Positions 3,634 to 37,583 of a stretch of 64,000 nucleotides of DNA are shown here, one piece after another (the first letter of the stretch is position 1; each line of letters starts with the position of its first letter). The translations under genes and the position numbers were made by a program. This DNA is from Patescibacteria group bacterium. Its GTDB lineage: Bacteria; Patescibacteriota; Microgenomatia; UBA12405. The DNA is taken from contig JBBTXE010000001.1 in assembly GCA_038062455.1 (NCBI GenBank), forward strand, positions 186,371-250,370, written 5' to 3'. The notes under the pieces are model-generated. The model was not told the DNA's origin, made no database searches, and saw nothing but the letters and a program-made list of their open reading frames with translations.

Positions 3634-5961
3634 ATGCCCGATGAGAGAAAATATTTACCCCTAATCCCTCTGCGTAACGTAGTCTTATTTCCTTCAGTTG
3701 AAACCTCGCTCTTTTTTGGCCGCAAAGAATCCAGTAATTCACTATTAGAAGCCTACGACAAACACAACCATTTATGTATTATTACCGCCCAGCGGAATTC
3801 CACCACCGACAAACCGGCACTCAAAGATATCTACACCGTGGCCATTTTGGCCCGCATTGAACACATTTTGCAAACCGATGGCAGTCTCCATGCTATCGTC
3901 AGGGGTCTCTCCCGGGTCAATATATTAGGTTTTGTCCAAACCGATCCCTTTATAATGGCCGAATATACCGATACACCCATTATTTCCGAGTTGGCCTCCG
4001 ATATTCAGCAATCGGCTGAAGCTCTTCTTTCCCAGTTAAAAAAAGCTTTTTCTCTTGGCCGACAATTTGATCTTCCGGCCATGATGCAGCTATCAACCGG
4101 CGTTTCTTCTTCCGACCTTGCCGACCAGGTTTCCTTTTCCGTCGAGGCTAAACTGCCGGAAAAACAAAAACTTCTGGAGACTCTTTTAGTATCAGAGCGT
4201 CTCAAGACCGCCACCGAACTACTGATTCGGGAAATGAAAGTCGCCGATCTCGAGCGTTCTATCGAAGAAAAAACTCAACAAAAATTCAATTCCACCATGA
4301 AAAGAAATGTATTAGAGGAACGCAAACACCAAATTGAACAGGAGTTAAAAAAATTGGGGAAAGAAGGGGATAGTGAATTTAGCGATTTGGAACACAAATT
4401 AAAAAAAGCTCAAATGCCTGCCGATGTCAAAAAGAAAGTTCTCAAAGAATACCACCGTCTGACCCAAATGGGTCCCATGTCTCCCGAAAGCAGTTACATT
4501 CGAACCTATCTCGAAATCATTGTTGAACTCCCTTGGGGGAAATATGATAAATCCGATCTCTCGGTCAAAAAATCAGCCAGTATCTTAAATCATGATCATT
4601 ACGGACTCAAAGAAGTCAAAGAAAGGATTTTAGAATATCTATCGGTTTTAAAACTAAAAAAAGAATCCGGTGACGACACTCAAACTGCCAACATTTTATG
4701 TTTTATTGGTCCTCCCGGAGTCGGCAAGACCTCTCTTGGCCGCTCAATAGCGCAAGCTATGGGTCGCCACTTTGTCCGGGCCTCTCTGGGTGGTATTCGT
4801 GACGAAGCCGAAATCCGTGGCCACCGCCGAACCTATGTTGGCGCTATGGCCGGTCGGATTGTCAATGGTATCAAAGACGCCAAGTCTATGAATCCCGTTT
4901 TTATGCTCGACGAGGTGGACAAAATCGGCGCTGATTACCGCGGCGACCCCAGTGCCGCCCTGCTGGAAGCTCTTGATCCCGAACAAAATAAAGACTTCAC
5001 CGACCACTATCTCGATTTTCCCCTCGACCTCTCCAAAGTCTTTTTTATTCTTACCGGCAACGATGCCTCATCGGTTCCTTATGCCCTGCGGGATCGTCTG
5101 GAAATAATTAATTTCTCCGGCTATACCCAGGAGGAAAAATACCATATTGCCGATCAATATTTAATCAAGAAAGAATTAAAAGCCAATGGATTAAAGACTT
5201 CTCAAATTTCCCCCTTCAAACCCGACACTCTCCGCTACCTTATCGACAAATATACCCGTGAAGCCGGTGTCCGTCATCTGGAACGGACCATTGCTACTCT
5301 TTTCCGCAAAGCCGCCAAAAAAATTGTGGCTGGCAATGTCAAAAAAGTTGATGTCAACGACCGCCCCCTTCTTCAAAAGTTTTTAGGCCCGGAAAAATTT
5401 TCATCCCAGCTCAAGGGCAAAAAAGACGAAGTAGGTGTCTCAACCGGACTGGCTTGGACCTCTGTTGGCGGTGATATTCTCTTTATCGAGGTAAATATCA
5501 TGCCCGGAAAAGGCCAGCTGACATTGACTGGTAAACTCGGCTCTGTCATGAAAGAATCCTGTCAGGCTGCTCTCTCCTTTGTCCGTTCCCAAGCCAAGGA
5601 GTGGGGGATTAAGGTTGATTTTCACAAAATTGATATTCATATCCATGTTCCCGAGGGTGCCACCCCCAAGGATGGCCCTTCCGCCGGTGGCGCCATCACC
5701 ACTGCCCTTATTTCCGCTCTCAAAAACCATCCTGTCCCCCGTCACATTGGCATGACCGGCGAAATAACTCTTCGGGGGAATATTCTGGAAATTGGCGGAC
5801 TTAAGGAAAAATCTATTGCCGCTCATCGGGCCGGACTAACCACTATTTTTATCCCCAAAGATAATCAGAAATCATTAGTTGAAATTCCTTCCGAAGTTAA
5901 AAAAACTATCAAATTTATCCCCGTTTCCCACTATTCCGAAATTTACAAAAAGATTTTTTAG
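3634..5961 (+). CDS. lon: ATP-dependent Lon protease
   Basis: ORF track starts at 3517, which overlaps era. I prefer ATG 3634 ([20 protein letters not shown], a Lon N-domain start). Walker [10 protein letters not shown]; protease Ser motif KDGPSAG. Confidence 0.9.
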
Positions 5962-6003
5962 TAAATTTGACAAAATGTCTTAAGTTATCTATCCTAAAAT
6001 CAG

Positions 6004-7650: not shown

Positions 7651-9963
7651 TCACATCTTTTCCAATATCTTTATTCCTAGTATCGTCAAACCGTCTTTAA
7701 TTATTTTAGCCGTCACTTTGGTCAAAAATAATCTCTGTTCTTCATGTGCTTCGCCGATAATCCGATGTTTTCCATAAAACTCATTATATTTCCGGGCTAA
7801 TATCAGCAAATATTCTGCCAACACTGCCGGAGAAAATCTATCCGCCGCCTCAACTATTTTTTCGCTATATTGATAAAAATACCGCAGTAGTGCCTTTTCC
7901 TCTTCATTAAATTCGTAATTTGTAATTCGTAATTCGTAATTGGTTTTGGCTTTAGCCAAAACGCTCCGGCATCTGGCATAGGTATATTGCAAATATGGTC
8001 CCGAATTTCCCTCCATACTCATCACTTTATCCCAATCAAAAATGATGTCCCTTTTGGGGTCAGCCGATAAATCATTAAATTTAATCGCTCCAATGGCTAC
8101 TGCTTCAATCTCCGCCTCAGTGTTTGTCGGGGCAATCTTTTTTGCCTGTTCTTTAGCCGTTTCTATTATTTCGGCCAAGTGGATTGTGTCACCTTTCCGA
8201 GTAGAAAATTTGCCTTCTTTCCAACGGATTAGACCATGCCCTATATGGATAAAACTATCTCCCCAGCCCATCAATCTGGCTGCCGCAAAAACTTGTTTAA
8301 AATGCAGGTTTTGTTCCGACCCCACCTCATAAATAATTAAATCCGGATTCCATTTTTCCTTTCTAAATTTGACCGTCGCCATATCCCGGGTAAAATAGGT
8401 TGTGGCTCCGTCGGACTTAAGAAGCATTGCCGGCGGAAGACTCTTCATCTCCACCATCAGTGCCCCCTCTGATTTCTTGGTTAGGCCTCCAGCCTTCATT
8501 TCTGAAATCACTTCCGGAAGCATTGGCAAATAAAACGCCTCACCGTAAGCATTATCTATTTTGACATCCAGCATTTCATAAACCCGGTTAAATTCATTCA
8601 TTGATATATCAACGCAATCCTGCCAGATTTTTTTAGCTTCTCCATTACCTTGTTCCAGTTTGGCAAACCAGGCTCGAGCCTCGTCCTCCAGTGTTTTATC
8701 AGTTTCGGCTTCTTCATGAAACTTCACATACAACTTTTCCAAGCCCTCAATTGTCTCCTCCATTCCCCAATGTTTAATTGCGGTAATCATTTTGCCAAAT
8801 TGAGTTCCCCAATCACCCAAGTGGTTGTCCCCGATGCATGTCCAACCTAAGGTTTGGTAAATATTGTAGAGTGCCTGACCGATGTTGGTCGACCGCAGGT
8901 GGCCTATCCCAAAGGGTTTGGCAATATTCGGGGCGCTGTAATCGATTACCATTGTTTTTCCTTTACCAATTTTTTTCAGCTCATCTTTTTGTTTACCGTT
9001 TAATATTTTTTCGGCCTCTTTTGCCAATACTTCTTGTTTCAGCCAGAGGTTTGAGAAACCGGTCACCTTATCCATTTTTTCAATAATATCCAAATCGGTT
9101 ACATCAACATCTCCCCGTATTGCAAAATCCCCAAAGTTATCCGCCGGATGGGTTATCGGTACACCAACTTTATCGTGTATATTTTTTGCCAGAAAATAAT
9201 ACTTCTTTTCCACCACTTTCTTTTCTATCTTATTTACTTCAAAATCAGCTAGTTTTTTTGATTCAAAATTAATCTCTGCTTCCGGATGATCTTTATTGAG
9301 AATCAAAATTTCCCCCTTACCTCCAAGATTCCTAGTCACATAGTCAATAAATTCTTCAGCAATTTTAACTAGTTCTTCTTTATTGCTTTCAAATCCATCC
9401 ATGACAAAATAGCCATTTTTAGATTCCGGAGTTAATTTAGTCCGATCACACTGTCGCCAGTTCCAAGATCGGCAGGTAACGTCTAGATCATCCCGCCAGA
9501 TCAATTCCCCTTCAAATGCTGGTTTACTTTTGGTTGAGCCAATGACCACCCATCTTTCCCCACCTTTGGCTAATGTTAGTACCAAGTTCCCGCAAGACTG
9601 ATCCAAATTTTCTCCGCCAAACGGTGTCAAATACTTGACACTAAAAGCATTGTAGGTATTAACAATGGTGTTAATATCGGGCAGCTTTGAACCTTCTAAA
9701 AGCCTCTTGGTTAGGGCTATGTGCGATGGTTCGGCTTCCTCGATGGCTCCAAAATCTTTAAACACTTTTCGGTATTCAGTTACTCTTTTATCTTTTTCCC
9801 ATGTTACCTTATCTATATTTTTTAAAAAATCGTTTTGCACTGTATCCAAAAACATGGCCGATTCTTCTCTTTTTATTCCGGCATTAAATCCGTAAACAAT
9901 CGGTACCACCTCCACCATCTCCGGAAATTTCTCAAATACCGTTTTATCAATTTTGAATTTCAT
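7651..9963 (-). CDS. argS: Arginyl-tRNA synthetase with N-terminal B3/B4 (PheRS-beta-like) domain
   Basis: 770 aa. The C-terminal ~520 aa are ArgRS (PNIAKPFGIGHLRS, DHLGDWGTQFGKM, GNSGPYLQYTYARCRS, DALR-type anticodon domain). The first ~235 aa match the COG3382 B3/B4 family pattern (LPDINTIVNTYNAFSVKYLTPFGGENLD...TCRSWNWRQCDRTKLT). Confidence 0.9.
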   Translation of the reverse strand: MKFKIDKTVFEKFPEMVEVVPIVYGFNAGIKREESAMFLDTVQNDFLKNIDKVTWEKDKRVTEYRKVFKDFGAIEEAEPSHIALTKRLLEGSKLPDINTIVNTYNAFSVKYLTPFGGENLDQSCGNLVLTLAKGGERWVVIGSTKSKPAFEGELIWRDDLDVTCRSWNWRQCDRTKLTPESKNGYFVMDGFESNKEELVKIAEEFIDYVTRNLGGKGEILILNKDHPEAEINFESKKLADFEVNKIEKKVVEKKYYFLAKNIHDKVGVPITHPADNFGDFAIRGDVDVTDLDIIEKMDKVTGFSNLWLKQEVLAKEAEKILNGKQKDELKKIGKGKTMVIDYSAPNIAKPFGIGHLRSTNIGQALYNIYQTLGWTCIGDNHLGDWGTQFGKMITAIKHWGMEETIEGLEKLYVKFHEEAETDKTLEDEARAWFAKLEQGNGEAKKIWQDCVDISMNEFNRVYEMLDVKIDNAYGEAFYLPMLPEVISEMKAGGLTKKSEGALMVEMKSLPPAMLLKSDGATTYFTRDMATVKFRKEKWNPDLIIYEVGSEQNLHFKQVFAAARLMGWGDSFIHIGHGLIRWKEGKFSTRKGDTIHLAEIIETAKEQAKKIAPTNTEAEIEAVAIGAIKFNDLSADPKRDIIFDWDKVMSMEGNSGPYLQYTYARCRSVLAKAKTNYELRITNYEFNEEEKALLRYFYQYSEKIVEAADRFSPAVLAEYLLILARKYNEFYGKHRIIGEAHEEQRLFLTKVTAKIIKDGLTILGIKILEKM
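7909..7941 (-). repeat. 7-nt tandem repeat (AATTACG x ~4.5) in frame inside argS
   Basis: Minus strand aattacg aattacg aattaca aattacg aattt encodes NYELRITNYEF at the junction to the anticodon-binding domain. Confidence 0.8.
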
Positions 9964-9972
9964 ATCTATATT

Positions 9973-10470
9973 TTACCCCAATAAATCTTTAACAATTTTA
10001 TAAATGTCAATTAAGGATGCGACATGGACGAAATTAACCCCGATTGTATCCGCTTCCTTTTTATAGTCTTTATCATCAAACCAATAAACATCATTCATAC
10101 TAATATGTGTTTTCTTCATGATCTCTTCAACCATAACGTGTTTTGGACAGTACCCTCGCCACAGTCTGACGTTGACAGAGTTTATGTCTATATATGGCCA
10201 CAATTTAAATAATTTTAGCGCCTCGACCACCATCGATTTTTGATTGTCACTAACAATTCCCGCAAGGTGACCCGTGTCGGATAATAATTTAAATACTTCC
10301 ACTATATTTTTTCCTAAGTAGATTTTTTGACCATCGATTTGTCTTAAAATCAATCTTGGATCAACAAATTTTAGTTTTGATGTTTTACTACTAATATAGT
10401 CTTTATTTTTGGTATGCCACAAAGTTTCATCAGCATCAAATAAAAATAGTTTTTTATTCATGTGTTTCAA
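9973..10470 (-). CDS. HAD-superfamily phosphatase, MDP-1-like
   Basis: 165 aa; motif I FDADETLW (DxDxT followed by LW, as in magnesium-dependent phosphatase-1); IVSDN; WFDDKDYK. Confidence 0.65.
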   Translation of the reverse strand: MKHMNKKLFLFDADETLWHTKNKDYISSKTSKLKFVDPRLILRQIDGQKIYLGKNIVEVFKLLSDTGHLAGIVSDNQKSMVVEALKLFKLWPYIDINSVNVRLWRGYCPKHVMVEEIMKKTHISMNDVYWFDDKDYKKEADTIGVNFVHVASLIDIYKIVKDLLG

Positions 10471-11815
10471 TAACTTTTAATAAAGTATTAATCAAACCGT
10501 ATTTTTTAAGCTCCTCCCAAGAGGGATTATTGAAGTTAAGCCCTTCCCAAACAGCTTCTCCTTCAAAAACATCTGAGTTTGGGTAAAACACTGTCGAGTA
10601 GGCCACTTTTCCGGCATACTCCATAGGAAACAATCTCTCTTGACCAAAATGATATTCTCGGATTTCAAAACTTTTACCCTTATGTCCGATACCGAATCTT
10701 TGACAATAATCGCCGTTAAGATTTGTTATTTTACCCACTAAGTTATTAGACAATCCGGCTAATTCTGAGGTCCAAGGTAGATGAATTGTCGAATTAAAAC
10801 TCCACAAATGACTTAATTTAGAAATTAAATCATCAAATTGAAAACAATATTTCTGGTCTGGTATTTTTCCTGATGCCAGATCTAAAAATAATCTATTTAA
10901 AAAATTAAATTCATATGATGGAGAATGAAACGCAGACCCTAAATCGACTATCCTTCCTTCCGCTTGGTAAGGCAGCCACTTTTTCATCTCGCTCCACGGT
11001 GGAATATAGGCACTGCACAACACACTCAGTCCTTCTGTTTCCGATTTGGACGTATTATCGATAGCCCGCTTCAGCATAAATACTTTTTTAGATATCACAC
11101 TATTATCTAGATTTTTTAAGGCTGGAATTTGGTCCAAAGAATTCTGGGTTAGCCAATAAAATATACCCATGCCCGGGTAATATCGCTTATCTTCTTTTAC
11201 TTTTAAGTCGACAAATGTAGGTAAATCAGTAGCCCAATTCCAGTCCCTATCTTTTCGTAGACCGCCAACTCCGGTTATGTTTCTGACCGTAATAATTGGT
11301 TTTCCTGTTAGGGTTAACCAGGTGAAATCTTCTAAATCTGGAACCATGGAATCAGTTTTGGTCACTCCGGGGAAAATAAAATCCTGACATCCGCCCAATT
11401 CCTGAGCCATTTGGCAAAAAAGTAAAGCAAATTTCCTGGATATTATCAGTTCTGATTTTACTGTTTTTAAAACTTGGTCGAAAGAAATATCAAGTCCTAG
11501 CAATTTAGCCTCATAAGTTAAACCGCCGACTAAAAATAATTCTCCAACCACCTTAGCCAGTTTTCGATGTGACTGGCAGGAATCATAGCCTGTTTCCAGA
11601 TAACCTACTTCTGGATCAGGTAAGTTATTTTTTACGGTACTAATTATTGCTTCAGCGTATTCAGGCCTTATAGTTTCTGTTTGTTTGTGTAGCCAAAATA
11701 AAGCTTCTTCTTGGCCATTATCGGTGCAAATATAGTCTTTGGCCCAATTTATATGCTCCTTAAGTTCCACCATCTGTTTTGGTGGAATATTCATTGTTTC
11801 TATTATATTTTTCAT
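10454..11815 (-). CDS. Hypothetical protein (453 aa from the first ATG)
   Basis: The ORF-track start at 11830 is a TTG lying inside the U-tract of the upstream terminator. The first ATG is at 11815 (MKNIIETMNIPP...). No motif I can recognise. 17-nt overlap with the downstream HAD gene suggests co-translation. Confidence 0.6.
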   Translation of the reverse strand: MKNIIETMNIPPKQMVELKEHINWAKDYICTDNGQEEALFWLHKQTETIRPEYAEAIISTVKNNLPDPEVGYLETGYDSCQSHRKLAKVVGELFLVGGLTYEAKLLGLDISFDQVLKTVKSELIISRKFALLFCQMAQELGGCQDFIFPGVTKTDSMVPDLEDFTWLTLTGKPIITVRNITGVGGLRKDRDWNWATDLPTFVDLKVKEDKRYYPGMGIFYWLTQNSLDQIPALKNLDNSVISKKVFMLKRAIDNTSKSETEGLSVLCSAYIPPWSEMKKWLPYQAEGRIVDLGSAFHSPSYEFNFLNRLFLDLASGKIPDQKYCFQFDDLISKLSHLWSFNSTIHLPWTSELAGLSNNLVGKITNLNGDYCQRFGIGHKGKSFEIREYHFGQERLFPMEYAGKVAYSTVFYPNSDVFEGEAVWEGLNFNNPSWEELKKYGLINTLLKVIETHE

Positions 11816-11825
11816 ATATTTTTTC

Positions 11826-12067
11826 AACAAAAAAGCCCCTTCGATTCCAATAGAAGATTGGAACCAAAGGGGCCAAAAAAGTTGGCGGTACCACCCTTTT
11901 TCAGTCTCTCAATAAAAATCCCCCTTGCGGAGGATGCCACTGAAATATTGAGAAACTCTCATTCTTCAGCGCTCCGTTGCCGACACGCTTTGCTTTCTTT
12001 ACGGTTTGCCTCCGTATCCCATTTTTGGGATCACCTCTCGGATCGCGACTCCGATTAAACGGTTTAT
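11826..12067 (-). promoter_or_regulatory. T-box riboswitch leader (terminator/antiterminator type)
   Basis: Minus-strand RNA contains AAAAAGGGUGGUACCGCC (plus 11885..11902), which matches the T-box consensus AAnnnGGGUGGNACCGCG. The antiterminator can be drawn as AGGG[UGGUACC]GCCAA-loop-UUGGC-CCCU. A competing terminator GCCCCUU...AAGGGGC (11835..11873) is followed by UUUUUU. A GNRA-capped hairpin AUCCUCC-GCAA-GGGGGAU (11918..11935) lies just upstream. Confidence 0.75.
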
Positions 12068-12073
12068 AACGAA

Positions 12074-12101
12074 ATTATAACCCATAATATAGTCGTGTCA
12101 A
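12074..12101 (-). promoter_or_regulatory. Sigma70-type consensus promoter for the T-box leader
   Basis: On the minus strand: TTGACA (12101..12096), 16-nt spacer, TATAAT (12079..12074). Predicted TSS near 12067. Confidence 0.6.
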
Positions 12102-12128: not shown

Positions 12129-12902
12129 GTGAAACCCATTTCCGAACTGACATCGAATCAAATATCTAATATTAAACTCATCTCTTTTGACAGTGATGGG
12201 GTTTTGGTCAAAAAGGGGACTGAACTCTCTCAAACCCAAGATGGCTCTTTCTCTCAAAGAACCAATTTTGTTTCACCTTCAGTATTGGACAGATTAAAAC
12301 TTCTTAAAAGACGCTTTCATATCGTTATCAATAGCGGTCGTAACAGTCTCTATCTTAGCCAAATTTATCAGGATATTCTCTGGGACAATGTCACTCTTAT
12401 CTCCGAAATCGGTGTCTTTCTTACCGGCCAGGGCTTCATGGTCCAAACCGAAAAAATGGATGATTATGAACTTGAAATTATCGCAAAAATCCGCGCCAAA
12501 TTAGGTAAATTAATCGGTGATCCCCGGGTCAAAGGTTTTGAACCCAAACAATTTTTGACCACTCTTCACTGTTTTTCCGAAGTTCCCGAAGTGGCTACAA
12601 TCGTCAAAGATTGTGATCCGGAAAATAAATTTTATTGTTGGTGGAATCTCGAGGCTTACGACATAAACTGTCAAAAATTTACCAAAATCAAGGCTCTGCT
12701 AAAACTACTATCATTGATGAAACTTAGTCCCTCCGAAGTTATGGTGGTTGGCAATGGTATTAACGATCGGGATTCGGTCACCTCCCAAATCCTCAACGTT
12801 TCCACCAATCCGTCAAACTTAATCGCTGACGATTATTCTATTGAGGGTGAACATCTCGGCGGTGAACTTCTTTTAGATCAACTTCTTCGGCTCATTTTCT
12901 AA
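12129..12902 (+). CDS. HAD-superfamily hydrolase (Cof/IIB-like)
   Basis: GTG start; motif I FDSDGVLV; motif IV VGNGINDRD; ~100-aa cap between them. Confidence 0.7.
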   Translation: MKPISELTSNQISNIKLISFDSDGVLVKKGTELSQTQDGSFSQRTNFVSPSVLDRLKLLKRRFHIVINSGRNSLYLSQIYQDILWDNVTLISEIGVFLTGQGFMVQTEKMDDYELEIIAKIRAKLGKLIGDPRVKGFEPKQFLTTLHCFSEVPEVATIVKDCDPENKFYCWWNLEAYDINCQKFTKIKALLKLLSLMKLSPSEVMVVGNGINDRDSVTSQILNVSTNPSNLIADDYSIEGEHLGGELLLDQLLRLIF

Positions 12903-13513
12903 TCAAAATTTCCCAGTCTCCAAATCGATCTTTTTTCGTCAAAGTAAATAGAGGTAATTCCGCCGTTTTTAAAACTTAGAGCTCGGAAAAATTTTTTAAA
13001 CAGCTTCGACTCAAAATCATCTCCGACAATCAAGTGGCAAATTAGACATCTCAAAAAATCGGCATGTGATACTACCAATATTGTTTTGTCAAAATATTTT
13101 GTCATCAACATTTTTCCAATTACTTTTGCTCTTTTAAAAGCTTCAACCATTGATTCACCTGTCTTATCAAATTTCCACCTAGGATCACAAAATTTTTTCT
13201 CACGCTCCTTAGCGTATCTGATTGCCTCGCTGTCTTCATTACTTTTTCCGCCCAATGTTTGTGATTGCAACCGTTCCCGATACATTTTTTCAAAAATAAC
13301 CTCTATTTTTAAAGTCATGTTAATTATTTCAGCCGTCTCTCTGGCCCGGGTCCAAGGGCTGGAAATTATCACCTCTATTCCCTTATCTTTTATCAACCTG
13401 CCGGTTCTTCTAGATTGTATCTTGCCGGTTTCAGACAAGCTTGACTCTGTTCTCTGTTCTATTCCGTTTTCGGCGTCAATGGTTTGTCCATGTCGGACTA
13501 GATATAGTTTCAT
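12899..13513 (-). CDS. Histidine phosphatase (phosphoglycerate-mutase-like) family protein
   Basis: N-terminal LVRHGQT (RHG motif); SSPWTRARETA; VVSHADF. Confidence 0.8.
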   Translation of the reverse strand: MKLYLVRHGQTIDAENGIEQRTESSLSETGKIQSRRTGRLIKDKGIEVIISSPWTRARETAEIINMTLKIEVIFEKMYRERLQSQTLGGKSNEDSEAIRYAKEREKKFCDPRWKFDKTGESMVEAFKRAKVIGKMLMTKYFDKTILVVSHADFLRCLICHLIVGDDFESKLFKKFFRALSFKNGGITSIYFDEKRSIWRLGNFD

Positions 13514-20175: not shown

Positions 20176-22035
20176 ATGTCGGATCTCACCGATCAACGCC
20201 TCCAAAAACTGGCCGCTATCAAAAAACTAAAACTTGATCCCTATCCTCAACCCAACCTGGAAAAACGGGACTGGTGTCAGGAAGCTGCTCAAAAACTTGA
20301 TAAAATCGTTACTGTTGCCGGCCGTCTCCTGCTTCTCCGCGGCCACGGCAAAATTTTGTTTGCCGATCTTGTCGACAAAACCGGCAAAATCCAACTTTTT
20401 TTTGAACAAAACACTCTTGACGCTAAAATGGGTTTGGTTAAACTTTTAGATTTAGGTGACATTATTTCCGCCATCGGCACCGTTTTCAAAACTCAAGCCG
20501 GTGAAATTACCGTTCGGGTTTCTGAATTTCAAATTCTGGCCAAAAATCTCCGCCCTCTTCCGGAAAAATTTCATGGGCTGACCGATGTCGAGGAACGCTA
20601 TCGTCAACGTTACGTTGATCTGATTGTCAATCCTGCATCCCGGGAAGTTTTTCTCACCCGTAGCAAAATATTAACCGAAATGAGGCGTTTTTTTGACGTT
20701 CATGGCTTTTTGGAAGTCGAAACTCCCATCTTGCAGCCGGTCTATGGCGGCGCCTCGGCCAAACCTTTTGTCACCCGCCACCATGAATTAAATCAGGACA
20801 TGTATCTGCGGATTTCCGATGAACTTTATCTAAAACGCCTGATTGTCGGCGGTCTGGAAAAAGTCTATGAGGTTTCCCGGGATTTTCGTAATGAAAGTGT
20901 CTCCCGTTTTCACAATCCCGAATTTACTCAAGTCGAATTTTATTGGGCCTATGTTGACTATGAAGTCCTGATGCGTTTTACCGAAGAGCTGATCTCTCAT
21001 TTGGTCAATACCATCAAAGGTTCTTTAAAAGTCACTTTCCAAAACCAAACCATCGATTTTACCCCGCCATATCCGCGTCTCACTTTCCGCGATGCTGTCC
21101 TCAAATACACCAAAATTAACATCGACGATATTAATACCGAATCCGATTTTATTCATGCATTAGAAATTAGACATTTGAAATTAGAAATTACGGGGCTCAT
21201 TGGCTTAGGAGCCCTGTTCGACGCCCTCTACAAAGAATATGTTCGCCCCAAGCTAATCGGTCCGCTTTTCCTTACCGATTATCCTTCAGAAATGATTGCT
21301 CTGGCCAAAAGGAAAGCCGATGACCCCCGAAAAATTGCCTCTTTTCAGCTTTTAGCCTGTGGTACCGAGCTTTTAAAAGCCTACAATGAGTTAAATGATC
21401 CCCGGGATCAAAAAGACCGTTGGCTTCAGGAAGAAATCTTGGCCAAAAGGGGATTGGAATCGGCCATGCCGATTGATGATGATTATATTCGGGCCCTGGA
21501 ATACGGTATGCCGCCCACCGCCGGCTGGGGGATGGGTATTGACCGCTTCACCCAATTCTTAACCGACTCCCCTACTATCAAAGACGTAATTTTGTTCCCC
21601 TCCATGAAAAACGAAACCACCCCCGTCATTGCGACCCCCGGATCGTCATTGCGAGGTAATCCGAAGCAATCTCCACCGAGTGGCGAGATCATCATCGGTC
21701 AGGTTACGGAAATTAAAGATCACCCATCTGCTGAAAATTTAAAAGTTGTTATGGTCAAGGTTTCAGACTCCGATTCCCGCCAAATTGTCTGTGGAGCCGA
21801 TAATTATCAGGTTGGTGATCTTGTCCCGGTGGCTCTTCCCGGTACTACTGTTCCCACTCCCGATGGCGGTACTCAAGTTATTGCCAAGGTTAAACTTCGC
21901 GGTGTTGAATCTGACGGCATGCTCTGTTCACCCCTAGAAGTCGGCGCTTCCTCCGATCACACCACTATTCACATCCTTTCAAAAGAACTCGAAAAGCATC
22001 TGGGGAAACCTATTGTTGAATATCTGAAGGAATAA
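20176..22035 (+). CDS. lysS: Lysyl-tRNA synthetase (class II) with C-terminal tRNA_bind (Trbp111/CsaA-like) domain
   Basis: 619 aa. OB anticodon domain; class II motifs (RDFRNESVSRFHNPEFTQVEFY, GMGIDR). Extra ~115 aa C-terminal domain GQVTEIKDHPSAENLKVVMVKV...IVCGADNYQVGDLVPVALPG...KLRGVESDGMLCS. Confidence 0.9.
   Translation: MSDLTDQRLQKLAAIKKLKLDPYPQPNLEKRDWCQEAAQKLDKIVTVAGRLLLLRGHGKILFADLVDKTGKIQLFFEQNTLDAKMGLVKLLDLGDIISAIGTVFKTQAGEITVRVSEFQILAKNLRPLPEKFHGLTDVEERYRQRYVDLIVNPASREVFLTRSKILTEMRRFFDVHGFLEVETPILQPVYGGASAKPFVTRHHELNQDMYLRISDELYLKRLIVGGLEKVYEVSRDFRNESVSRFHNPEFTQVEFYWAYVDYEVLMRFTEELISHLVNTIKGSLKVTFQNQTIDFTPPYPRLTFRDAVLKYTKINIDDINTESDFIHALEIRHLKLEITGLIGLGALFDALYKEYVRPKLIGPLFLTDYPSEMIALAKRKADDPRKIASFQLLACGTELLKAYNELNDPRDQKDRWLQEEILAKRGLESAMPIDDDYIRALEYGMPPTAGWGMGIDRFTQFLTDSPTIKDVILFPSMKNETTPVIATPGSSLRGNPKQSPPSGEIIIGQVTEIKDHPSAENLKVVMVKVSDSDSRQIVCGADNYQVGDLVPVALPGTTVPTPDGGTQVIAKVKLRGVESDGMLCSPLEVGASSDHTTIHILSKELEKHLGKPIVEYLKE
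21160..21192 (+). repeat. 7-nt tandem repeat (TTAGAAA-like x ~4.5) in frame inside lysS
   Basis: ttagaaa ttagaca tttgaaa ttagaaa ttacg encodes LEIRHLKLEIT. Confidence 0.75.
21623..21690 (+). repeat. In-frame copy of the GTCATTGCGAG palindromic element inside lysS
   Basis: cgtcattgcgac ccccggat cgtcattgcgaggtaatccgaagcaatctcc..., versus the intergenic copy cgtcattgcgagggtaataccaaagcaatcacc at 7561. Translated as PVIATPGSSLRGNPKQSPPSGEII. Confidence 0.75.
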
Positions 22036-29996: not shown

Positions 29997-32156
29997 ATGA
30001 AAAAGATTTTGACTCTATTTTTAATAACCATAATTAGCCTATTAGTAGTTTTCCCTGTTTTAGCTGAAGACAAAAATTTTCAAAATTCCGGTTTCGCCGG
30101 TATAATTCCCAAGCTTCCTCAAACCCCCAACGATCCTGAACTTGTTAACGACTTCGTTTATCCCCCTTGGGGTCCGGTTTGCCAAAGATATACATATACG
30201 GTTACATACAAAGACAAAGAAGGTAGAAAGCCCGAGTATATGAGAATTATTTTCAACGGCAAACCGATTGAAATGGAAAAACAAAAACCAAATAATAATG
30301 ACTATAAAAATGGTGTTACTTATATCTATAAATTTGTCCCCAACAAATTGGGCTCGAATTTTTATTATTTTGAGACCTCCAATGGTTTAGGGAAAGCCCG
30401 GGCTGGGATTATAGATTCACCTGACAACGGTCCCGTTCTTTTCAAAAGCGCTTTTGACAAAAACGAAATTGCCGTTATCGACAGCCAAACCGGGCAAAAA
30501 GTCTTAAGTTATCCTACCAAAGAAGAATGGGTTGGCGGCATTGCCCTTTCTGACGACGGTAAATATTTAGCCGCCAAAACCTCGTTTAAAATCTATCTTT
30601 TTGATCTGGACAATCCCCAAAAACCAAAATGGGTTTACGAGCATATAAAAGGTAGCGGTATGGTTGGCGGAGACGTTAAAGGCGGGATTGATATTTCCGG
30701 AGACGGCTCTAAAATTATTGCTTCAATTGGTCAAAGCGTTTTACTTTTCGACCAATCCGGCCACGAACCGCTTTGGCGAAATGATCAAGTTGGCAATACT
30801 TACAATGTTGCCATCTCTCGCGATGGAAAATATATGGCTGCCGCTACGGCTGGCGAAGAATCAAACCCCAGAACAAATTTATTGATTTTATGGAGTGCCG
30901 ATAGTGAAAAACCTCTCTGGACTTATCATTCCTCCGGCAATTTCCATGATGTTTCCCTGTCGGCTGACGGCCAGTATATTGCCGCTGCCACCGGCTGTCC
31001 CGATAGAAGATTTTATGTATTCTCGCGTGACTCAAATACACCTCTGATTAAATCGGAAATGTTAACCCGTGACTCTCCCGTCCATCGGGCCAAAATTTCT
31101 GCTGATGGAACTTTGGCTGCCGTTGGCAGCGAATCCGATGCCGGGGCCGTTTTTCTTTTCAATACCAATTCCCCCAACCCGGTTTGGAAATTCCCCACGC
31201 CAAATGGCAGTTCAGTCCGGGCCCTAAACTTTACTCCTGACGGCAAATATATTGGCGCGGCCACTTTTGGCGGCCAGGCCTATATTTTTGAAAAGGATAA
31301 AAGTTCTCCGGTTGCCACCTGGGTTGTCAATAATGCTGCCTTAGGCGGAGTCGATATCGCTGATGACGGATCTTTTATAGCCGCCGGTGGGACGGATAAT
31401 AAACTTCATATTTTTGAAAGAGGAAAAACCACCGGAATAGAAATCCCTTTTGATGAGTATGTTGAGGAAATTGATATTTCCGGAAACGGCCAATATGTTG
31501 CCGCCGGCACCGGCGGATCAGTTTACTTTTTTGAGAGTATAAATAATGATAATAAGATTTTTCCCTGCACCACCATTATTGAACCAAAACCCCAAGGAGC
31601 TATGGGTGAAAACAGCACCGGTGGGCAACCTACTAACAGTCTATGCGGCGATGGAAAATGCGAAGGACCGGAGACAATTGATAATTGTCAACAGGACTGT
31701 GACCCGAATTCTAAAACAACAACCGGAAAACCTCCTATTAAAAACACTCAACCAAAACTCCCCGGCATGTTGTTTGGCTTTGGCTTTATTGGATCTGTCC
31801 TACTTCTTGGAGTGTCTAAAGTATTTAAAAAATATTTAATACAATTTTGCGTTTCCAAGTTTTCTTCTTCGAAGTTAACCGACAGAAAAATAACTATTTT
31901 TCTATTAATTATGTCCATATTATTTTTATTTCTCACCCTAACTGCGGTTTTAGTTAATAAAAATCCCGATGCTATCTTGTTAAAGACAGGCGAACAAACA
32001 AAGCCGGAACCCGGCCGAGTCATCTTGAATCAGGAAAATAAACCGATTCTAAATGAAGGTAAACAAAAAAGCGGCGTATGCGGTAACAATATCTGTGAAC
32101 CCGGTTTGGGAGAAACAAGAGAAAATTGCCCTAAGGACTGTTCGGCCGGAGATTAA
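29997..32156 (+). CDS. Secreted/membrane-anchored 8-blade beta-propeller protein with two CGxxxCE...NCxxDC motifs
   Basis: Signal peptide. Eight repeats of the (I/L)SxDGxY(I/L/M)AA type. CGDGKCEGPETIDNCQQDC, then two TM helices, then CGNNICEPGLGETRENCPKDC at the C-terminus. Confidence 0.65.
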   Translation: MKKILTLFLITIISLLVVFPVLAEDKNFQNSGFAGIIPKLPQTPNDPELVNDFVYPPWGPVCQRYTYTVTYKDKEGRKPEYMRIIFNGKPIEMEKQKPNNNDYKNGVTYIYKFVPNKLGSNFYYFETSNGLGKARAGIIDSPDNGPVLFKSAFDKNEIAVIDSQTGQKVLSYPTKEEWVGGIALSDDGKYLAAKTSFKIYLFDLDNPQKPKWVYEHIKGSGMVGGDVKGGIDISGDGSKIIASIGQSVLLFDQSGHEPLWRNDQVGNTYNVAISRDGKYMAAATAGEESNPRTNLLILWSADSEKPLWTYHSSGNFHDVSLSADGQYIAAATGCPDRRFYVFSRDSNTPLIKSEMLTRDSPVHRAKISADGTLAAVGSESDAGAVFLFNTNSPNPVWKFPTPNGSSVRALNFTPDGKYIGAATFGGQAYIFEKDKSSPVATWVVNNAALGGVDIADDGSFIAAGGTDNKLHIFERGKTTGIEIPFDEYVEEIDISGNGQYVAAGTGGSVYFFESINNDNKIFPCTTIIEPKPQGAMGENSTGGQPTNSLCGDGKCEGPETIDNCQQDCDPNSKTTTGKPPIKNTQPKLPGMLFGFGFIGSVLLLGVSKVFKKYLIQFCVSKFSSSKLTDRKITIFLLIMSILFLFLTLTAVLVNKNPDAILLKTGEQTKPEPGRVILNQENKPILNEGKQKSGVCGNNICEPGLGETRENCPKDCSAGD

Positions 32157-34191: not shown

Positions 34192-34890
34192 AGTTCCAAA
34201 AGAATAATCACCCCGGATTGCTTCGGGTAAATGACATAAATCTTTGATATCAAATACAAATATGGGTATTCCCGATTCCTCGCACATAGTAAAAGCCGTT
34301 TGGTCCATTACCCCTAATCTTTCATGAATTACTGCCCGATAATTTAGTTCCGGATATTTTTTAGCGTCTGGATATTTTTTGGGATCTTTATCATAAACCC
34401 CATCAACCGTACTGGCCTTAAAAATCATCTTACATTCAAGCTCGGCCGCATATTGAGCCACGGCTGAATCGGTTGAGAAAAACGGTATTCCCAATCCCCC
34501 CGCAATAATTACCAGTCGGTTATTAGCCAAATGATACCGGCCCTTAATTAAAATAAAAGGTTCAGCCACTTGGGGAATATTTATCGAAGTCATCAATCGG
34601 GTATTTTCGGCGCCATTTCTAACCAAAGCTTCCCGCAATCCGATTCCATTCATAATTGTTGCCAACATTCCCATTGAATCAGCCTGTGTCCGGTCAACTC
34701 CGACACTGGCCTCCCGGCCCCGAAAAATATTTCCTCCGCCTACCACCATCGCCAATTGGACCTTTGTTTGTTCCCGAATCTCAATTATTTGCCTGGCCAC
34801 CACCTCATATTGTTCAAAATCAATCTGCTTTCCTTCACTTTCAAACAGCTGGCCGCTAAGTTTCAGTATGGCTCTTTCCACTATTCCCAT
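34177..34890 (-). CDS. pyrH: UMP kinase
   Basis: KLSGQ, VVGGGNIFRG, GIPFFSTDSAVA, VDGVYDKDP. Confidence 0.9.
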   Translation of the reverse strand: MGIVERAILKLSGQLFESEGKQIDFEQYEVVARQIIEIREQTKVQLAMVVGGGNIFRGREASVGVDRTQADSMGMLATIMNGIGLREALVRNGAENTRLMTSINIPQVAEPFILIKGRYHLANNRLVIIAGGLGIPFFSTDSAVAQYAAELECKMIFKASTVDGVYDKDPKKYPDAKKYPELNYRAVIHERLGVMDQTAFTMCEESGIPIFVFDIKDLCHLPEAIRGDYSFGTLISG

Positions 34891-34997
34891 TGTTGAAGGA
34901 TTGTATTTTATCGTTCTCGAGTTGTCAATTCTTTGTTTCGCCTTTTCTTCGGTTTTGCTTCTTGACTTATTCCATTTTACCCGCGTATCATTTTTAT

Positions 34998-35840
34998 ATG
35001 AATGATAACCATCTCGCCATTTTTAAAGGTAAAAAAATTAGAAGAGAAATTTATTTAAATGAGTGGTGGTTTTCGGTGGTTGATATTTGTGAGGCTCTAA
35101 CTGAAAGTACAAATGGCGGTGCCTACTGGCGTAAGTTAAAACAAAGGCTAATTTTAGAGAGTAATCAGGTCGTGACATTTTGTCACGGACTGAAATTAAC
35201 TGCCTCAGATGGGAAAAAGTATATAACCGATTGTGCCGATACCGAAGGTGTCTTCCGTATCGTTCAATCTATTCCTTCTCCTAAAGCCGAACCATTCAAA
35301 CGTTGGTTGGCAAAAGTTGGTTATGAAAGAGTGCAGGAAATAGAAAACCCGGAGTTAGCGACCAAACGAACAAGGGCACTTTACAAACTTAAGGGTTACC
35401 CTGAAGATTGGATTGAAAAACGGATGCGGGGTATTGCTATCCGCGAAGAATTGACTGATGAATGGGACCAGCGTGGCGCCAAATTACAAAAAGATTATGA
35501 AATATTAACTGCTGAAATTTCCAAAGCCACTTTTGGCGTCACCCCAAATGAATACAAAAAACTCAAAGGTCTTCAGCGGGAAAATCTCCGTGATCACATG
35601 GATGATTTTGAATTAATCTTTACTATGTTAGGAGAAAGGTCAACTACTGAAATCCACCGTCAGGAAGAATCGAAAGGTGTACCAAAATTAAAACACGATG
35701 CAGCACGGGGAGGCAAAATCGCCGGTCATGCCAGAGCAGAGCTAGAAAAAGAAATTGGCCGATCAGTAGTTTCCAGACAAAACTATCTGCCAAATGGAAA
35801 AACAAAGTTGTCCAAAATTATGAAGAGTTTAAAAAGCTGA
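34998..35840 (+). CDS. Bro-N domain protein (antirepressor/DinD-like)
   Basis: Prefer ATG 34998 (MNDNHLAIFKGKKIRREIYLNEWWFSVVDICEAL = Bro-N pattern). The ORF-track start at 34890 is a TTG abutting pyrH. Confidence 0.6.
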   Translation: MNDNHLAIFKGKKIRREIYLNEWWFSVVDICEALTESTNGGAYWRKLKQRLILESNQVVTFCHGLKLTASDGKKYITDCADTEGVFRIVQSIPSPKAEPFKRWLAKVGYERVQEIENPELATKRTRALYKLKGYPEDWIEKRMRGIAIREELTDEWDQRGAKLQKDYEILTAEISKATFGVTPNEYKKLKGLQRENLRDHMDDFELIFTMLGERSTTEIHRQEESKGVPKLKHDAARGGKIAGHARAELEKEIGRSVVSRQNYLPNGKTKLSKIMKSLKS

Positions 35841-35884
35841 AATAACCTTATTGACTTTGGGTTTTATTCGGGTATATTTTAATT

Positions 35885-36718
35885 ATGAAAAATAAAAAAG
35901 TAAACGTCCGCGGGTTTGAAATAATTATATTCAGAAAAAACCTTAGCGACTATATATCTCTAACTGACATGGCAAAATTTAAAAATACCGATGATCCTCG
36001 ATATGTAATTCAAAACTGGATGAAGACACGATTTACTGTCGATTTCTTGGGAATATGGGAACAAATTTATAATAATAATTTTAACCGTGTCGAATTCGAC
36101 ACCTTTAGACTTGAGGTTGGGACAAATGCTTTTGTAATGACTCCACAAAAATGGATTAGCAAAACAAATGCCATTGGATTAATTTCCAAGGCAGGCCGTT
36201 ACGGCGGTGGTACTTTTGCTCATCAGGACATTGCTTTTGAATTTGCCAGTTGGCTAAGCCCCGAATTTAAACTTTATTTGATTAAGGAATTTCAACGGCT
36301 TAAATTTGAAGAAAATGAAAGGTTGTCTCTCGGTTGGGATGTTAAACGTCAGTTAACTAAAATTAATTATCGGATTCATACCGATGCTATCAAAGAAAAT
36401 TTAATTCCCAATTCATTAACCAAAAAACAAACCAATGTTATCTATGCTTCCGAAGCCGATGTTTTAAATGTTGCCTTGTTTGGTAAAACAGCTAAAGATT
36501 GGCGTGAAGAAAACATAAATAAAGAAGGTAATATTCGCGACTATTGCGATGTCACCCAACTGGTTGTTTTGGCAAATCTTGAGGGAATAAATGCGCAATT
36601 AATTCGGCAAAATTTACTACAGTCAGACAGGTTAAGTCAATTAAACAAAATCGCTATTTCACAAATGAAGTCTTTAGTCAACAATTCATCAATTAAAAAA
36701 CTAGAAAGTAGAAATTAA
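35885..36718 (+). CDS. KilA-N domain protein
   Basis: YISLTDMAKF...GGTFAHQDIAFEFASWLSPEFKLYL matches the KilA-N DNA-binding domain pattern. Confidence 0.7.
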   Translation: MKNKKVNVRGFEIIIFRKNLSDYISLTDMAKFKNTDDPRYVIQNWMKTRFTVDFLGIWEQIYNNNFNRVEFDTFRLEVGTNAFVMTPQKWISKTNAIGLISKAGRYGGGTFAHQDIAFEFASWLSPEFKLYLIKEFQRLKFEENERLSLGWDVKRQLTKINYRIHTDAIKENLIPNSLTKKQTNVIYASEADVLNVALFGKTAKDWREENINKEGNIRDYCDVTQLVVLANLEGINAQLIRQNLLQSDRLSQLNKIAISQMKSLVNNSSIKKLESRN

Positions 36719-36719
36719 A

Positions 36720-36740
36720 TTATCCCTTTCTCCCCGCCCT
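36720..36740. repeat. 21-nt direct repeat, left copy (duplicate of the typA 3' end)
   Basis: ttatccctttctccccgccct is identical to 37914..37934, which is the typA stop codon plus its last 6 codons (RAGRKG*). Confidence 0.85.
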
Positions 36741-36778
36741 CACCCAGTCAATTATTGTAATAAATTTTCACAATTCTA

Positions 36779-36807
36779 TTGACAAACAATTTTACATCAG
36801 CTACCAT
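36779..36807 (+). promoter_or_regulatory. Putative promoter of the TA pair (near-leaderless)
   Basis: TTGACA (36779..36784), 17 nt, TACCAT (36802..36807). The ATG lies only 5 nt downstream at 36813. Confidence 0.4.
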
Positions 36808-36812
36808 AGGTT

Positions 36813-37583
36813 ATGGCTATAACATTTTTCAAACAACTTCGCCTAAAAAACAACTTTAGCCAATCCTTTGTCGCTTCCCACCTTTGTGTTTCCCGACCCA
36901 CCTATATGCAAATAGAAAAAGGGGAACGGGAATTGGTGGTCAGTGAGGCTCGAAAACTAGCTGATCTCTACGGTCTGACTCTTGAGGCTCTACTTGGAGA
37001 ACAGGATATTAAAGTGGGTATAACAGAATTAAAACAATCCAAGAAAATATTAAACCTGCCCCGGGTTTACATTCCTCAAAACAACATCGAAAAATTTAAA
37101 CAAGTGCTACTTTACCTTTTGGGCAAGGTTGGTTCGCGCCCAAATATTGGAGAAACAGCCGTTTATAAAATACTCTATTTTATTGACTTTGACTATTACG
37201 AAAAATACGAAGATCAGTTAATTGGCGCCAAATATATCCGGAATAATTATGGCCCGACTCCGGTTCATTTTAAAAAAGTGGTTGATAAAATGATCAAGAA
37301 TGGTGAGCTGGAAGCTGTATCTAGTAAATATTTTCAATATCCTCAGAAAAAATATTTACCGAAAATATCGGCAGACTTATCTAAATTATCCGGCCAGGAA
37401 ATAGCCCACATTGATGATGTTCTGGCTCGACTATCCGGCAAAAGCGCTAAAGAATTAACTGACTACTCTCATACCGACAATCCTTGGATGACTAAAAAAT
37501 CAGGCGAAATTTTAGATTACGAATCAGTTTTTTATCGGGACGCCCTCCATTCGGTACGGGACAACAGCCATGATCAACTATGA
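36813..37583 (+). CDS. XRE-HTH + Panacea (DUF4065/SocA-like) domain antitoxin
   Basis: N-terminal HTH (LRLKNNFSQSFVASHLCVSRPTYMQIEKGERE). C-terminal ETAVYKILYFIDFDYYEKYEDQLIGAKYIRNNYGPTP matches the DUF4065/PanA pattern. Confidence 0.7.
   Translation: MAITFFKQLRLKNNFSQSFVASHLCVSRPTYMQIEKGERELVVSEARKLADLYGLTLEALLGEQDIKVGITELKQSKKILNLPRVYIPQNNIEKFKQVLLYLLGKVGSRPNIGETAVYKILYFIDFDYYEKYEDQLIGAKYIRNNYGPTPVHFKKVVDKMIKNGELEAVSSKYFQYPQKKYLPKISADLSKLSGQEIAHIDDVLARLSGKSAKELTDYSHTDNPWMTKKSGEILDYESVFYRDALHSVRDNSHDQL

Follow-up and report, generated by a model that had tools for sequence, protein, structure and literature searches.

What is a 453-amino-acid protein without a recognisable motif doing at the head of an arginyl-tRNA synthetase (ArgRS) operon, behind a leader of the T-box type? 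This question is raised by a locus of a Patescibacteria group bacterium (GCA_038062455.1, contig JBBTXE010000001.1, positions 186,371-250,370 of the forward strand; this whole stretch of 64,000 nucleotides (nt) is called the window), in which the gene for the protein is followed by genes for a small phosphatase of the haloacid dehalogenase (HAD) type and for ArgRS. The protein and its family are here named FAM. For comparison, 32 loci were collected (labelled with L-numbers, individual proteins with P-numbers). The leaders of these loci tie FAM and its phosphatase to arginine, and the genomic context suggests, with a probability of about 0.4, that the pair is an arginine-starvation-induced, phosphotransfer-dependent arginine-supply module.

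In the window, the promoter, T-box leader, terminator, FAM, HAD and argS all lie on the minus strand and in that order (Table 1). The most likely start of HAD is the ATG at 10461, since homologues open with M-x-K-K-L-F-L-F-D, and it gives an 8-nt overlap with the end of FAM, ATGAATAA. A first-pass annotation of the same DNA had reported an overlap of 17 nt, a size that assumes the TTG at 10470, so that the overlap itself is real but shorter; its 9-nt gap between the HAD stop and the argS ATG at 9963 is confirmed by the open reading frame (ORF) coordinates. The unit contains 12 promoter-like sites against 15.1 expected from shuffled sequences, none of them above chance, and no convincing internal promoter that would decouple FAM from the leader was thus seen. 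On the coding strand, a single weak 6-bp terminator-like hairpin lies within FAM (11179-11164) and none was found between HAD and argS. The presence of promoter, leader and terminator together with the lack of credible internal signals supports a single transcription unit of FAM, HAD and argS under the T-box, as had been proposed. Among the 45 window ORFs scanned against Pfam there is no arginine-pathway gene, the matches being to housekeeping or phage-related families.

The T-box announced ahead of FAM is real though atypical, as judged from its RF00230 score, box, terminator and promoter. In a 600-nt search the alignment spans the full Rfam model RF00230 (1-219), yet 67 stem-I positions are absent; a 5-bp hairpin is what is left of stem I, with 8 nt in the place of 75 in the model. 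Because most of stem I is missing, the score of 45.1 bits stays below the gathering score of 93 bits. A canonical stem I, which is long and comprises a K-turn, the specifier loop and a distal platform for the tRNA elbow, is not present, and the leader fits a truncated-stem-I subclass rather than a canonical T-box. It folds with z = -4.8, more stably than every one of 200 shuffles, into a 5-bp stem with the 7-nt loop GUCGCGA followed by stem II/IIA-B-like hairpins. The box AAAAAGGGUGGUACCGCC is present, the antiterminator pairs align to the RF00230 model, and the 18-bp terminator shares the GGCCCCUUU arm with the antiterminator. The triplet CGC is centred in the 7-nt specifier loop with a purine as the next base, and the leader as a whole aligns with 13 other leaders.

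The regulation is the strongest result of the analysis. In 16 distinct loci FAM is directly preceded by a T-box. Rfam supports it in the window, in L001 (with two in tandem) and in L004 and L015, and in the remaining loci it is recognised by its GGGUGGUAC box and terminator and from the alignment. It is found despite the lack of argS in the flanks of L001, L004, L006, L019, L026, L029 and L031, and in L011 and L013 one T-box belongs to the upstream argS and a second, separate one to FAM-HAD. CGC followed by a purine (G or A) occupies the first hairpin loop of 17 out of 17 leaders examined, and the specifier stems covary (UCGGA/UCCGA, GUGGA/UCCAC, CCAGA/UCUGG, GAAAGA/UCUUUC and GCCUAU/AUAGGC). 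An identical loop occurs in the T-box of argS itself in L011, and this calibrates the specifier as arginine (Arg). A reading as alanine (GCG/GCA) was rejected: CGC is invariant and centred, a purine always comes next and the L011 argS loop is identical, and in the GCR frame the following purine is not conserved. The link of FAM to the cognate amino acid or its tRNA, which the first-pass annotation had suggested from gene position, is much strengthened by this survey, in which homologues are not scattered but linked to a synthetase or a T-box.

The T-boxes of these Candidate Phyla Radiation (CPR) bacteria (the window and 15 related loci) score 38-45 bits against RF00230, L002 and L020 being among those missed at a relaxed E-value; standard annotation will therefore not report these leaders. 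The closest relative of the window locus, L001 (59% identity), has tandem Arg T-boxes at 5547-5728 and 5784-5967, ahead of FAM-HAD and with no argS nearby. No terminator is obvious in the second of them, which may control translation.

In the three loci that have upstream DNA without a T-box (L008, L016 and L018), short leader ORFs with runs of arginine codons are found instead, each followed by a terminator; RRSRR, RRSR and RRR are found among the leader peptides. In folding predictions for L018, free Arg codons lead to 1:2 pairing and the terminator, and masked Arg codons to the antiterminator GGGGGCGAUG/CAUCGCCCC, i.e., 2:3 pairing. This predicted attenuator switch is confined to L018, as the minimum-energy folds of L008 and L016 keep the terminator. 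In the leaders of L016 and L018 the outer stem also sequesters the ribosome-binding site. The attenuator candidates replace the T-box in Saccharimonadia-like and Gracilibacteria loci. Since T-box and leader-peptide attenuator are unrelated, two kinds of predicted arginyl-tRNA sensor converge on FAM-HAD, and the leader sequences place the pair in a regulon predicted to sense uncharged tRNA-Arg.

FAM and HAD are a fixed two-gene module in Patescibacteria and are probably translationally coupled. HAD is the gene next after FAM in 21 distinct loci. Three code-25 contigs are exceptions: L009 has its HAD gene 3.7 kb further downstream, and in L028 and L030 there is no HAD gene within 8 kb. Apart from argS, no third conserved gene recurs in the collected loci. 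argS adjoins the pair in eight loci and in two gene orders, either downstream of HAD (the window, L002, L007, L010 and L024) or immediately upstream of FAM (L011, L013 and L009). L023 has an arginase-family gene that overlaps with the end of HAD. Genes for M20/M28 peptidases, not necessarily orthologous, recur near FAM loci (L032 6783-9508, L009 1555-2922, L019 9020-10114 and L031 7769-8857).

The window FAM is identical to NCBI entry MEK7527621.1, a 'hypothetical protein' of a Patescibacteria metagenome-assembled genome. Searches of Pfam, NCBIfam, PADLOC and PHROGs gave no match, searches of PDB sequences gave 0 matches with either the single sequence or a profile built from 58 members, and no Pfam family recurred among these 58 members at E up to 10, in agreement with the first-pass remark that no motif could be assigned. 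The family counts 59 proteins in 5.8 billion searched, and an exhaustive profile search returned 44 representatives in 1.84 billion; all members with taxonomy belong to Patescibacteria (Saccharimonadales, Gracilibacteria and unclassified Patescibacteria). An AlphaFold2 model made from the alignment is confident (pLDDT 92.6, pTM 0.90). The Foldseek search of this model, a check that had been recommended at the outset, gave no structural match to a housekeeping family: the best PDB hit has E 2.7 and a TM-score of about 0.1, BFVD gave none, and all E-values exceed 0.8. The approach works, since the same PDB search with the HAD model retrieved MDP-1 at E 1.5e-9.

The FAM alignment has 43 invariant columns with many acidic and basic residues, including H297 and H345, a pattern which argues that FAM is an enzyme. 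Many of the invariant residues are Arg and Lys, and C267, S382 and E384 are nearly invariant. Two patches that had looked conserved in the single sequence do hold invariant residues (G184, G185, R187, D189, W192 and N193 in one, G368 and G375 in the other). FAM probably has a new fold and, from its context, would be a catalytic substrate-binding domain that handles a phosphoryl group.

The partner protein passes the cut-offs of HAD-SF-IIIC (TIGR01681, 43.9 bits versus 35.75) and of Pfam Acid_PPase but remains below the MDP-1 equivalog cut-off (TIGR01685, 43.5 versus 53.75 bits), so that 'MDP-1-like', as it was first called, is an apt description. Its catalytic motifs I-IV are intact and invariant (D9xD11-T13, S71, K107 and D129D130). 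The model (pLDDT 96.7) has a Rossmann-like core without a large cap and superposes on mouse and human MDP-1 with a TM-score of 0.79. The best structural match is MDP-1 (1U7P), followed by C-terminal domain (CTD) phosphatases and the T4 Pnkp 3'-phosphatase. No less rare than FAM, this HAD subfamily counts 25 proteins, and 13 of these are on contigs equal in size to FAM-bearing contigs.

A hint to the chemistry comes from fused forms of FAM, which occur in six lineages (P0060, P0062, P0064, P0067, P0068 and L009) as proteins of 830-1050 aa. Their order of domains is PPDK_N (ATP-grasp), PEP-utilizers phosphohistidine swivel and FAM, which is the order of phosphoenolpyruvate (PEP) synthase, with FAM at the site of the pyruvate/PEP domain. 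The catalytic motif SH-G-A-Q-R-A-R-E is present in the fused proteins, and their N-terminal module matches the structures of PEP synthase and rifampin phosphotransferase. In L015 and L026 the fused genes are still accompanied by an Arg T-box and by HAD. Fused and stand-alone FAM have the invariants of the active-site-like core in common; D145 is invariant in stand-alone FAM and is H, S or E in the fused forms. From the order of domains, the most likely role of FAM in the fusions is to accept the phosphoryl group or bind the substrate in a His-swivel dikinase. The window FAM has neither a PPDK_N nor a swivel domain in Pfam searches. A trans-acting ATP-grasp/swivel protein near stand-alone FAM was sought and rejected, as none is encoded in the window or the flanks. 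P0089, which among stand-alone CPR proteins is closest to the ATP-grasp module of the fusions, has unrelated surroundings, with an M20 peptidase (one of the recurring M20/M28 genes) as neighbour, and hhalign found no relation between FAM and the middle domain of rifampin-phosphotransferase-like CPR dikinases. The most divergent fusion (P0064, L027 3329-5812) lies beside genes for an ArsR-type regulator, a major facilitator superfamily transporter and DUF6268; it is without a T-box or leader peptide and may come from outside the CPR.

In all three code-25 contigs (L009, L028 and L030) the fused gene is directly followed by a phosphagen kinase of the arginine-kinase type. The best PDB matches of these kinases are arginine kinases, with E-values of about 1e-59 to 1e-106, compared to about 1e-17 for McsB; animal arginine kinases are matched at about 1e-59. 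L009 forms an arginine island, with the genes in the order M20 peptidase, arginase family, argS, dikinase-FAM, arginine kinase, M19 dipeptidase, Orn/Arg decarboxylase and HAD. Arginine kinases are rare in bacteria, which makes a horizontal acquisition of the code-25 enzymes likely.

From these observations the following mechanism is proposed. Uncharged tRNA-Arg would favour the antiterminator and allow read-through into FAM, HAD and argS, the module serving to increase the free arginine available to ArgRS. FAM would turn a guanidino- or ureido-bearing arginine precursor or conjugate into a phosphorylated product, possibly N-omega-phosphoarginine, or into arginine and a phosphorylated co-product, and HAD would remove the phosphate from the product and thereby pull the reaction. 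In the code-25 lineages the adjoining arginine kinase could replace the HAD step with recovery of ATP. In the fused forms the phosphohistidine swivel would deliver the phosphoryl group to FAM; stand-alone FAM has no ATP module and would for that reason have to act on a pre-phosphorylated substrate or use inorganic phosphate or a small phospho-donor. Small-molecule phosphotransfer is favoured over tRNA handling because of the dikinase fusion and the arginine-kinase neighbour. The specific route through phosphoarginine, in which FAM would be the new-fold domain of a third arginine route besides ArgG/ArgH and ArcE that starts from a phosphoryl-activated ureido or guanidino precursor, is rather unlikely.

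Several points weigh against an arginine-supply module. Most members, including the window protein, are stand-alone and have no ATP or phospho-donor domain, and with no PPDK_N/swivel homologue in the 64-kb window or the flanks their source of phosphoryl groups is unexplained. The alternation of HAD and arginine kinase is weak, as L009 has both and the contigs of L028 and L030 are cut upstream. The clusters of L009 and L023 do not show the direction of flux, since arginase-family enzymes and the decarboxylase consume arginine. A dikinase acting on arginine together with arginine kinase would, by our own thermodynamic estimate, form a futile cycle. Finally, cap-less HADs of the MDP-1 type often act on macromolecules.

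This last property leads to a quite improbable reading in which FAM and the cap-less HAD act on tRNA-Arg, in end repair or modification, or on protein arginines; in the latter variant a kinase, a reader and a phosphatase for phosphoarginine would feed proteolysis and amino-acid recycling. The HAD does lie near MDP-1, CTD phosphatases and the T4 Pnkp 3'-phosphatase, a group of enzymes with open sites in which several members have protein or nucleic-acid substrates, and both the control by tRNA-Arg and the many invariant Arg and Lys residues of FAM would fit a macromolecular target. However, FAM has no similarity to RNA-binding or nucleotidyl-transferase proteins in Pfam or Foldseek searches, the guanidino kinase found as a neighbour belongs to the free-arginine-kinase type (about 1e-59 versus about 1e-17 for McsB) and includes the N-terminal phosphagen-kinase domain, and known His-swivel dikinases phosphorylate small molecules or glucans. 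Improbable to much the same degree is a store of phosphoarginine, made by arginine kinase or dikinase-FAM and hydrolysed to arginine by FAM and HAD under starvation. It would account for the arginine kinase beside fused FAM in all three code-25 contigs, for the constant pairing with a phosphatase and for the predicted starvation-type induction by T-box or attenuator, but neither the window nor the flanks of stand-alone loci contain an arginine kinase, and a phosphatase alone would be enough, which leaves a 453-aa catalytic partner without a role. Moreover, a dikinase that builds a store should not be induced by starvation, and the fusions of L015 and L026 sit behind Arg T-boxes.

Resistance or detoxification is unlikely, if somewhat less so: FAM would bind an arginine antimetabolite or an ArgRS inhibitor, which the fusions would phosphorylate and stand-alone FAM and HAD degrade, and induction via uncharged tRNA-Arg would be a direct read-out of ArgRS inhibition. 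A T-box or attenuator indeed answers such inhibition as well as starvation, the fused dikinase module is closest to PEP synthase and rifampin-phosphotransferase-type enzymes, and the CtdA-like domain on the window ArgRS makes arginine analogues seem relevant in the lineage. Nevertheless, we know of no natural ArgRS inhibitor, and an obligatory phosphatase would reverse a protective phosphorylation. Canavanine is charged onto tRNA-Arg (PMC10018355) and would therefore not induce the T-box. The arginine kinase, arginase-family and peptidase neighbours suit arginine metabolism better. Very improbable, finally, is that FAM is an extremely divergent PEP/pyruvate-binding domain, the fusions being analogues of PEP synthase or pyruvate phosphate dikinase (PPDK) and the stand-alone proteins PEP-utilising enzymes that are in an argS operon incidentally. 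The order of ATP-grasp, swivel and FAM is that of PEP synthase, and there is a resemblance at similar spacing between VRTLTGVGGLR and IRTLDIGGDK and between GLSNDL and GSNDM, resting in part on a single weak hhalign match. However, 0 of 58 members match PEP-utilizers_C at E up to 10, hhalign against the C-terminus of E. coli PpsA gives a probability of 0.4%, and a Foldseek search of the PDB, which contains all of these, retrieves no TIM-barrel, PpsA, PPDK or Enzyme I; an identity with the PEP-utilizers_C barrel was rejected on these three grounds. The argS-independent arginine regulation would also be left unexplained.

Table 1. Features of the FAM-HAD-argS unit, of related loci and of the remainder of the window (window coordinates unless a locus is named)
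Feature	Locus	Position	Strand	Remarks
Sigma-70-type promoter, TTGACA-16 nt-TATAAT	Window	12074..12101	-	12/12 matches; about 6 nt upstream of T-box leader
T-box leader RNA, ultrashort stem I	Window	11865..12068	-	Rfam RF00230, 45.1 bits, E 9.7e-9
Specifier hairpin UCGGA[GUCGCGA]UCCGA	Window	12038..12054	-	Arg codon CGC at 12045-12047
T-box sequence GGGUGGUACCGCC	Window	11884..11896	-	UGGU bulge, would pair with tRNA 3' ACCA end
Intrinsic terminator	Window	11834..11874	-	18-bp stem, 5-nt loop, U-tract; 5' arm overlaps antiterminator
FAM ORF, 453 aa	Window	10454..11815	-	ATG start; TTG alternative at 11830
HAD-IIIC / MDP-1-like phosphatase, 162 aa	Window	9973..10461	-	ATG start; 165 aa from TTG at 10470
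argS, arginine--tRNA ligase, 770 aa	Window	7651..9963	-	TIGR00456, 385.8 bits; Pfam tRNA-synt_1d, DALR_1
ArgRS N-terminal B3/4 (CtdA-like) domain	Window	9250..9963	-	Pfam B3_4, 4.1e-18
Attenuator region with leader ORF MMIMVTPLQFNVRRSRRMYGCYPFSV	L016	286-418		Candidate arginine leader-peptide attenuator
Attenuator region with leader ORF MFMFNHAITFSSRRSRIYGGDACSVQK	L018	776-908		Candidate arginine leader-peptide attenuator
Attenuator region with leader ORF MNFSFYSFSLISSLRRRFFHCGKGP	L008	7722-7875		Candidate arginine leader-peptide attenuator
Phosphagen kinase gene	L009	9360-10463		Both N- and C-terminal kinase domains
Phosphagen kinase gene	L028	3225-4418		Both N- and C-terminal kinase domains
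Phosphagen kinase gene	L030	3225-4379		Both N- and C-terminal kinase domains
Cof-type HAD (Hydrolase_3)	Window	12129-12902	+	Immediately upstream of operon, divergent
Histidine-phosphatase (His_Phos_1) protein	Window	12899-13513	-	Upstream of operon
Lysyl-tRNA synthetase (LysRS) with C-terminal tRNA_bind domain	Window	20176-22035	+	
WD40 beta-propeller protein, 719 aa	Window	29997-32156	+	
Phage-like gene block: Bro-N, KilA-N, helix-turn-helix + SocA/Panacea antitoxin	Window	34890-37583	+	

The ArgRS of the window is unusual in its own right. Its N-terminal part of about 238 aa is a B3/4 domain, which stands where Arg_tRNA_synt_N is usual. Among PDB entries this B3/4 domain matches best the canavanyl-tRNA-Arg deacylase CtdA (9f7e, E 1.3e-25). 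The argS products of L002, L010 and L024 have no B3/4 domain. No editing domain is known in any ArgRS according to the 2023 paper on CtdA (PMC10018355), and the window protein would for this reason be a natural cis-editing ArgRS. The Hydrolase_3, His_Phos_1 and operon HAD genes place three phosphatase genes within 3.5 kb.

The ultra-small CPR bacteria or Patescibacteria are thought to be without amino-acid biosynthesis and to live on host supply. Against this background FAM-HAD would mark an unrecognised phosphate-dependent piece of arginine metabolism in the CPR, and FAM, as a family with no relatives detectable in sequence or fold, is a target for structure determination and enzymology. It may also be a new acceptor domain for His-swivel dikinases, and the short-stem-I Arg T-boxes are a class missed by standard annotation. 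A by-product of the analysis is an ArgRS that would naturally contain an editing domain of the CtdA type. The response of CPR bacteria to arginine limitation becomes testable with two small recombinant proteins.

In the literature searched there was no account of the FAM family, of such CPR Arg T-boxes or of a dikinase-FAM fusion, and nothing relevant on a CPR arginine kinase, an arginine dikinase or HAD phosphoarginine phosphatases. FAM has no known relatives, within a structural search limited to PDB and BFVD, and its putative function is read from context; the regulatory logic and the HAD fold are of known kinds. The window HAD has the four HAD motifs, the fold (TM-score 0.79) and the HAD-SF-IIIC and Acid_PPase assignments in common with MDP-1 but is only 20% identical to it, remains below the equivalog cut-off, is bacterial (CPR), is strictly paired with FAM and has the additional invariant residues D21, R40, D43, C105, Y126 and Y133. 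Compared to the His-swivel dikinases PpsA, PPDK, rifampin phosphotransferase and glucan water dikinase, the six fused FAM proteins have the PpsA order, whereas the window FAM and most other members have no ATP-grasp or swivel domain, and FAM itself has no detectable likeness in sequence or fold to PEP-utilizers_C or to a middle domain of the rifampin-binding type.

Possible functional analogues are the argininosuccinate synthetase/lyase route and the arginine synthetase ArcE, which make arginine from citrulline in an ATP-dependent manner via an activated ureido group (PMC11032458). By annotation ArcE is a putative GTPase, with kinship to cyclic 2,3-diphosphoglycerate synthetase (PMC11032458); FAM shows no such similarity in Pfam or NCBIfam. 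By family description the two differ, homology of FAM to ArcE (TK2200, of a P-loop family like that of the cyclic diphosphoglycerate synthetase) is unlikely, and ArcE is a functional analogue at most. Pairs of a synthase and a HAD phosphatase, such as sucrose-phosphate synthase/phosphatase and 3-deoxy-D-manno-octulosonate 8-phosphate (KDO8P) synthase/KdsC, in which a phosphorylated product is formed and the phosphatase makes the pathway irreversible, are alike in logic only, the FAM-HAD proteins and products being unrelated to theirs.

The closest precedent for the leader is found in the T-box riboswitches with truncated stem I described for ileS leaders of Actinobacteria. Both have the T-box sequence, an antiterminator/terminator switch and stem II/IIA-B-like elements, with the specifier in a short hairpin and no distal platform. 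In contrast to these ileS leaders, the window leader is predicted to act by transcription termination, presents its arginine codon (CGC) in a 7-nt terminal loop, occurs in Patescibacteria, scores 45 bits against an Rfam gathering threshold of 93 and controls a non-synthetase gene pair.

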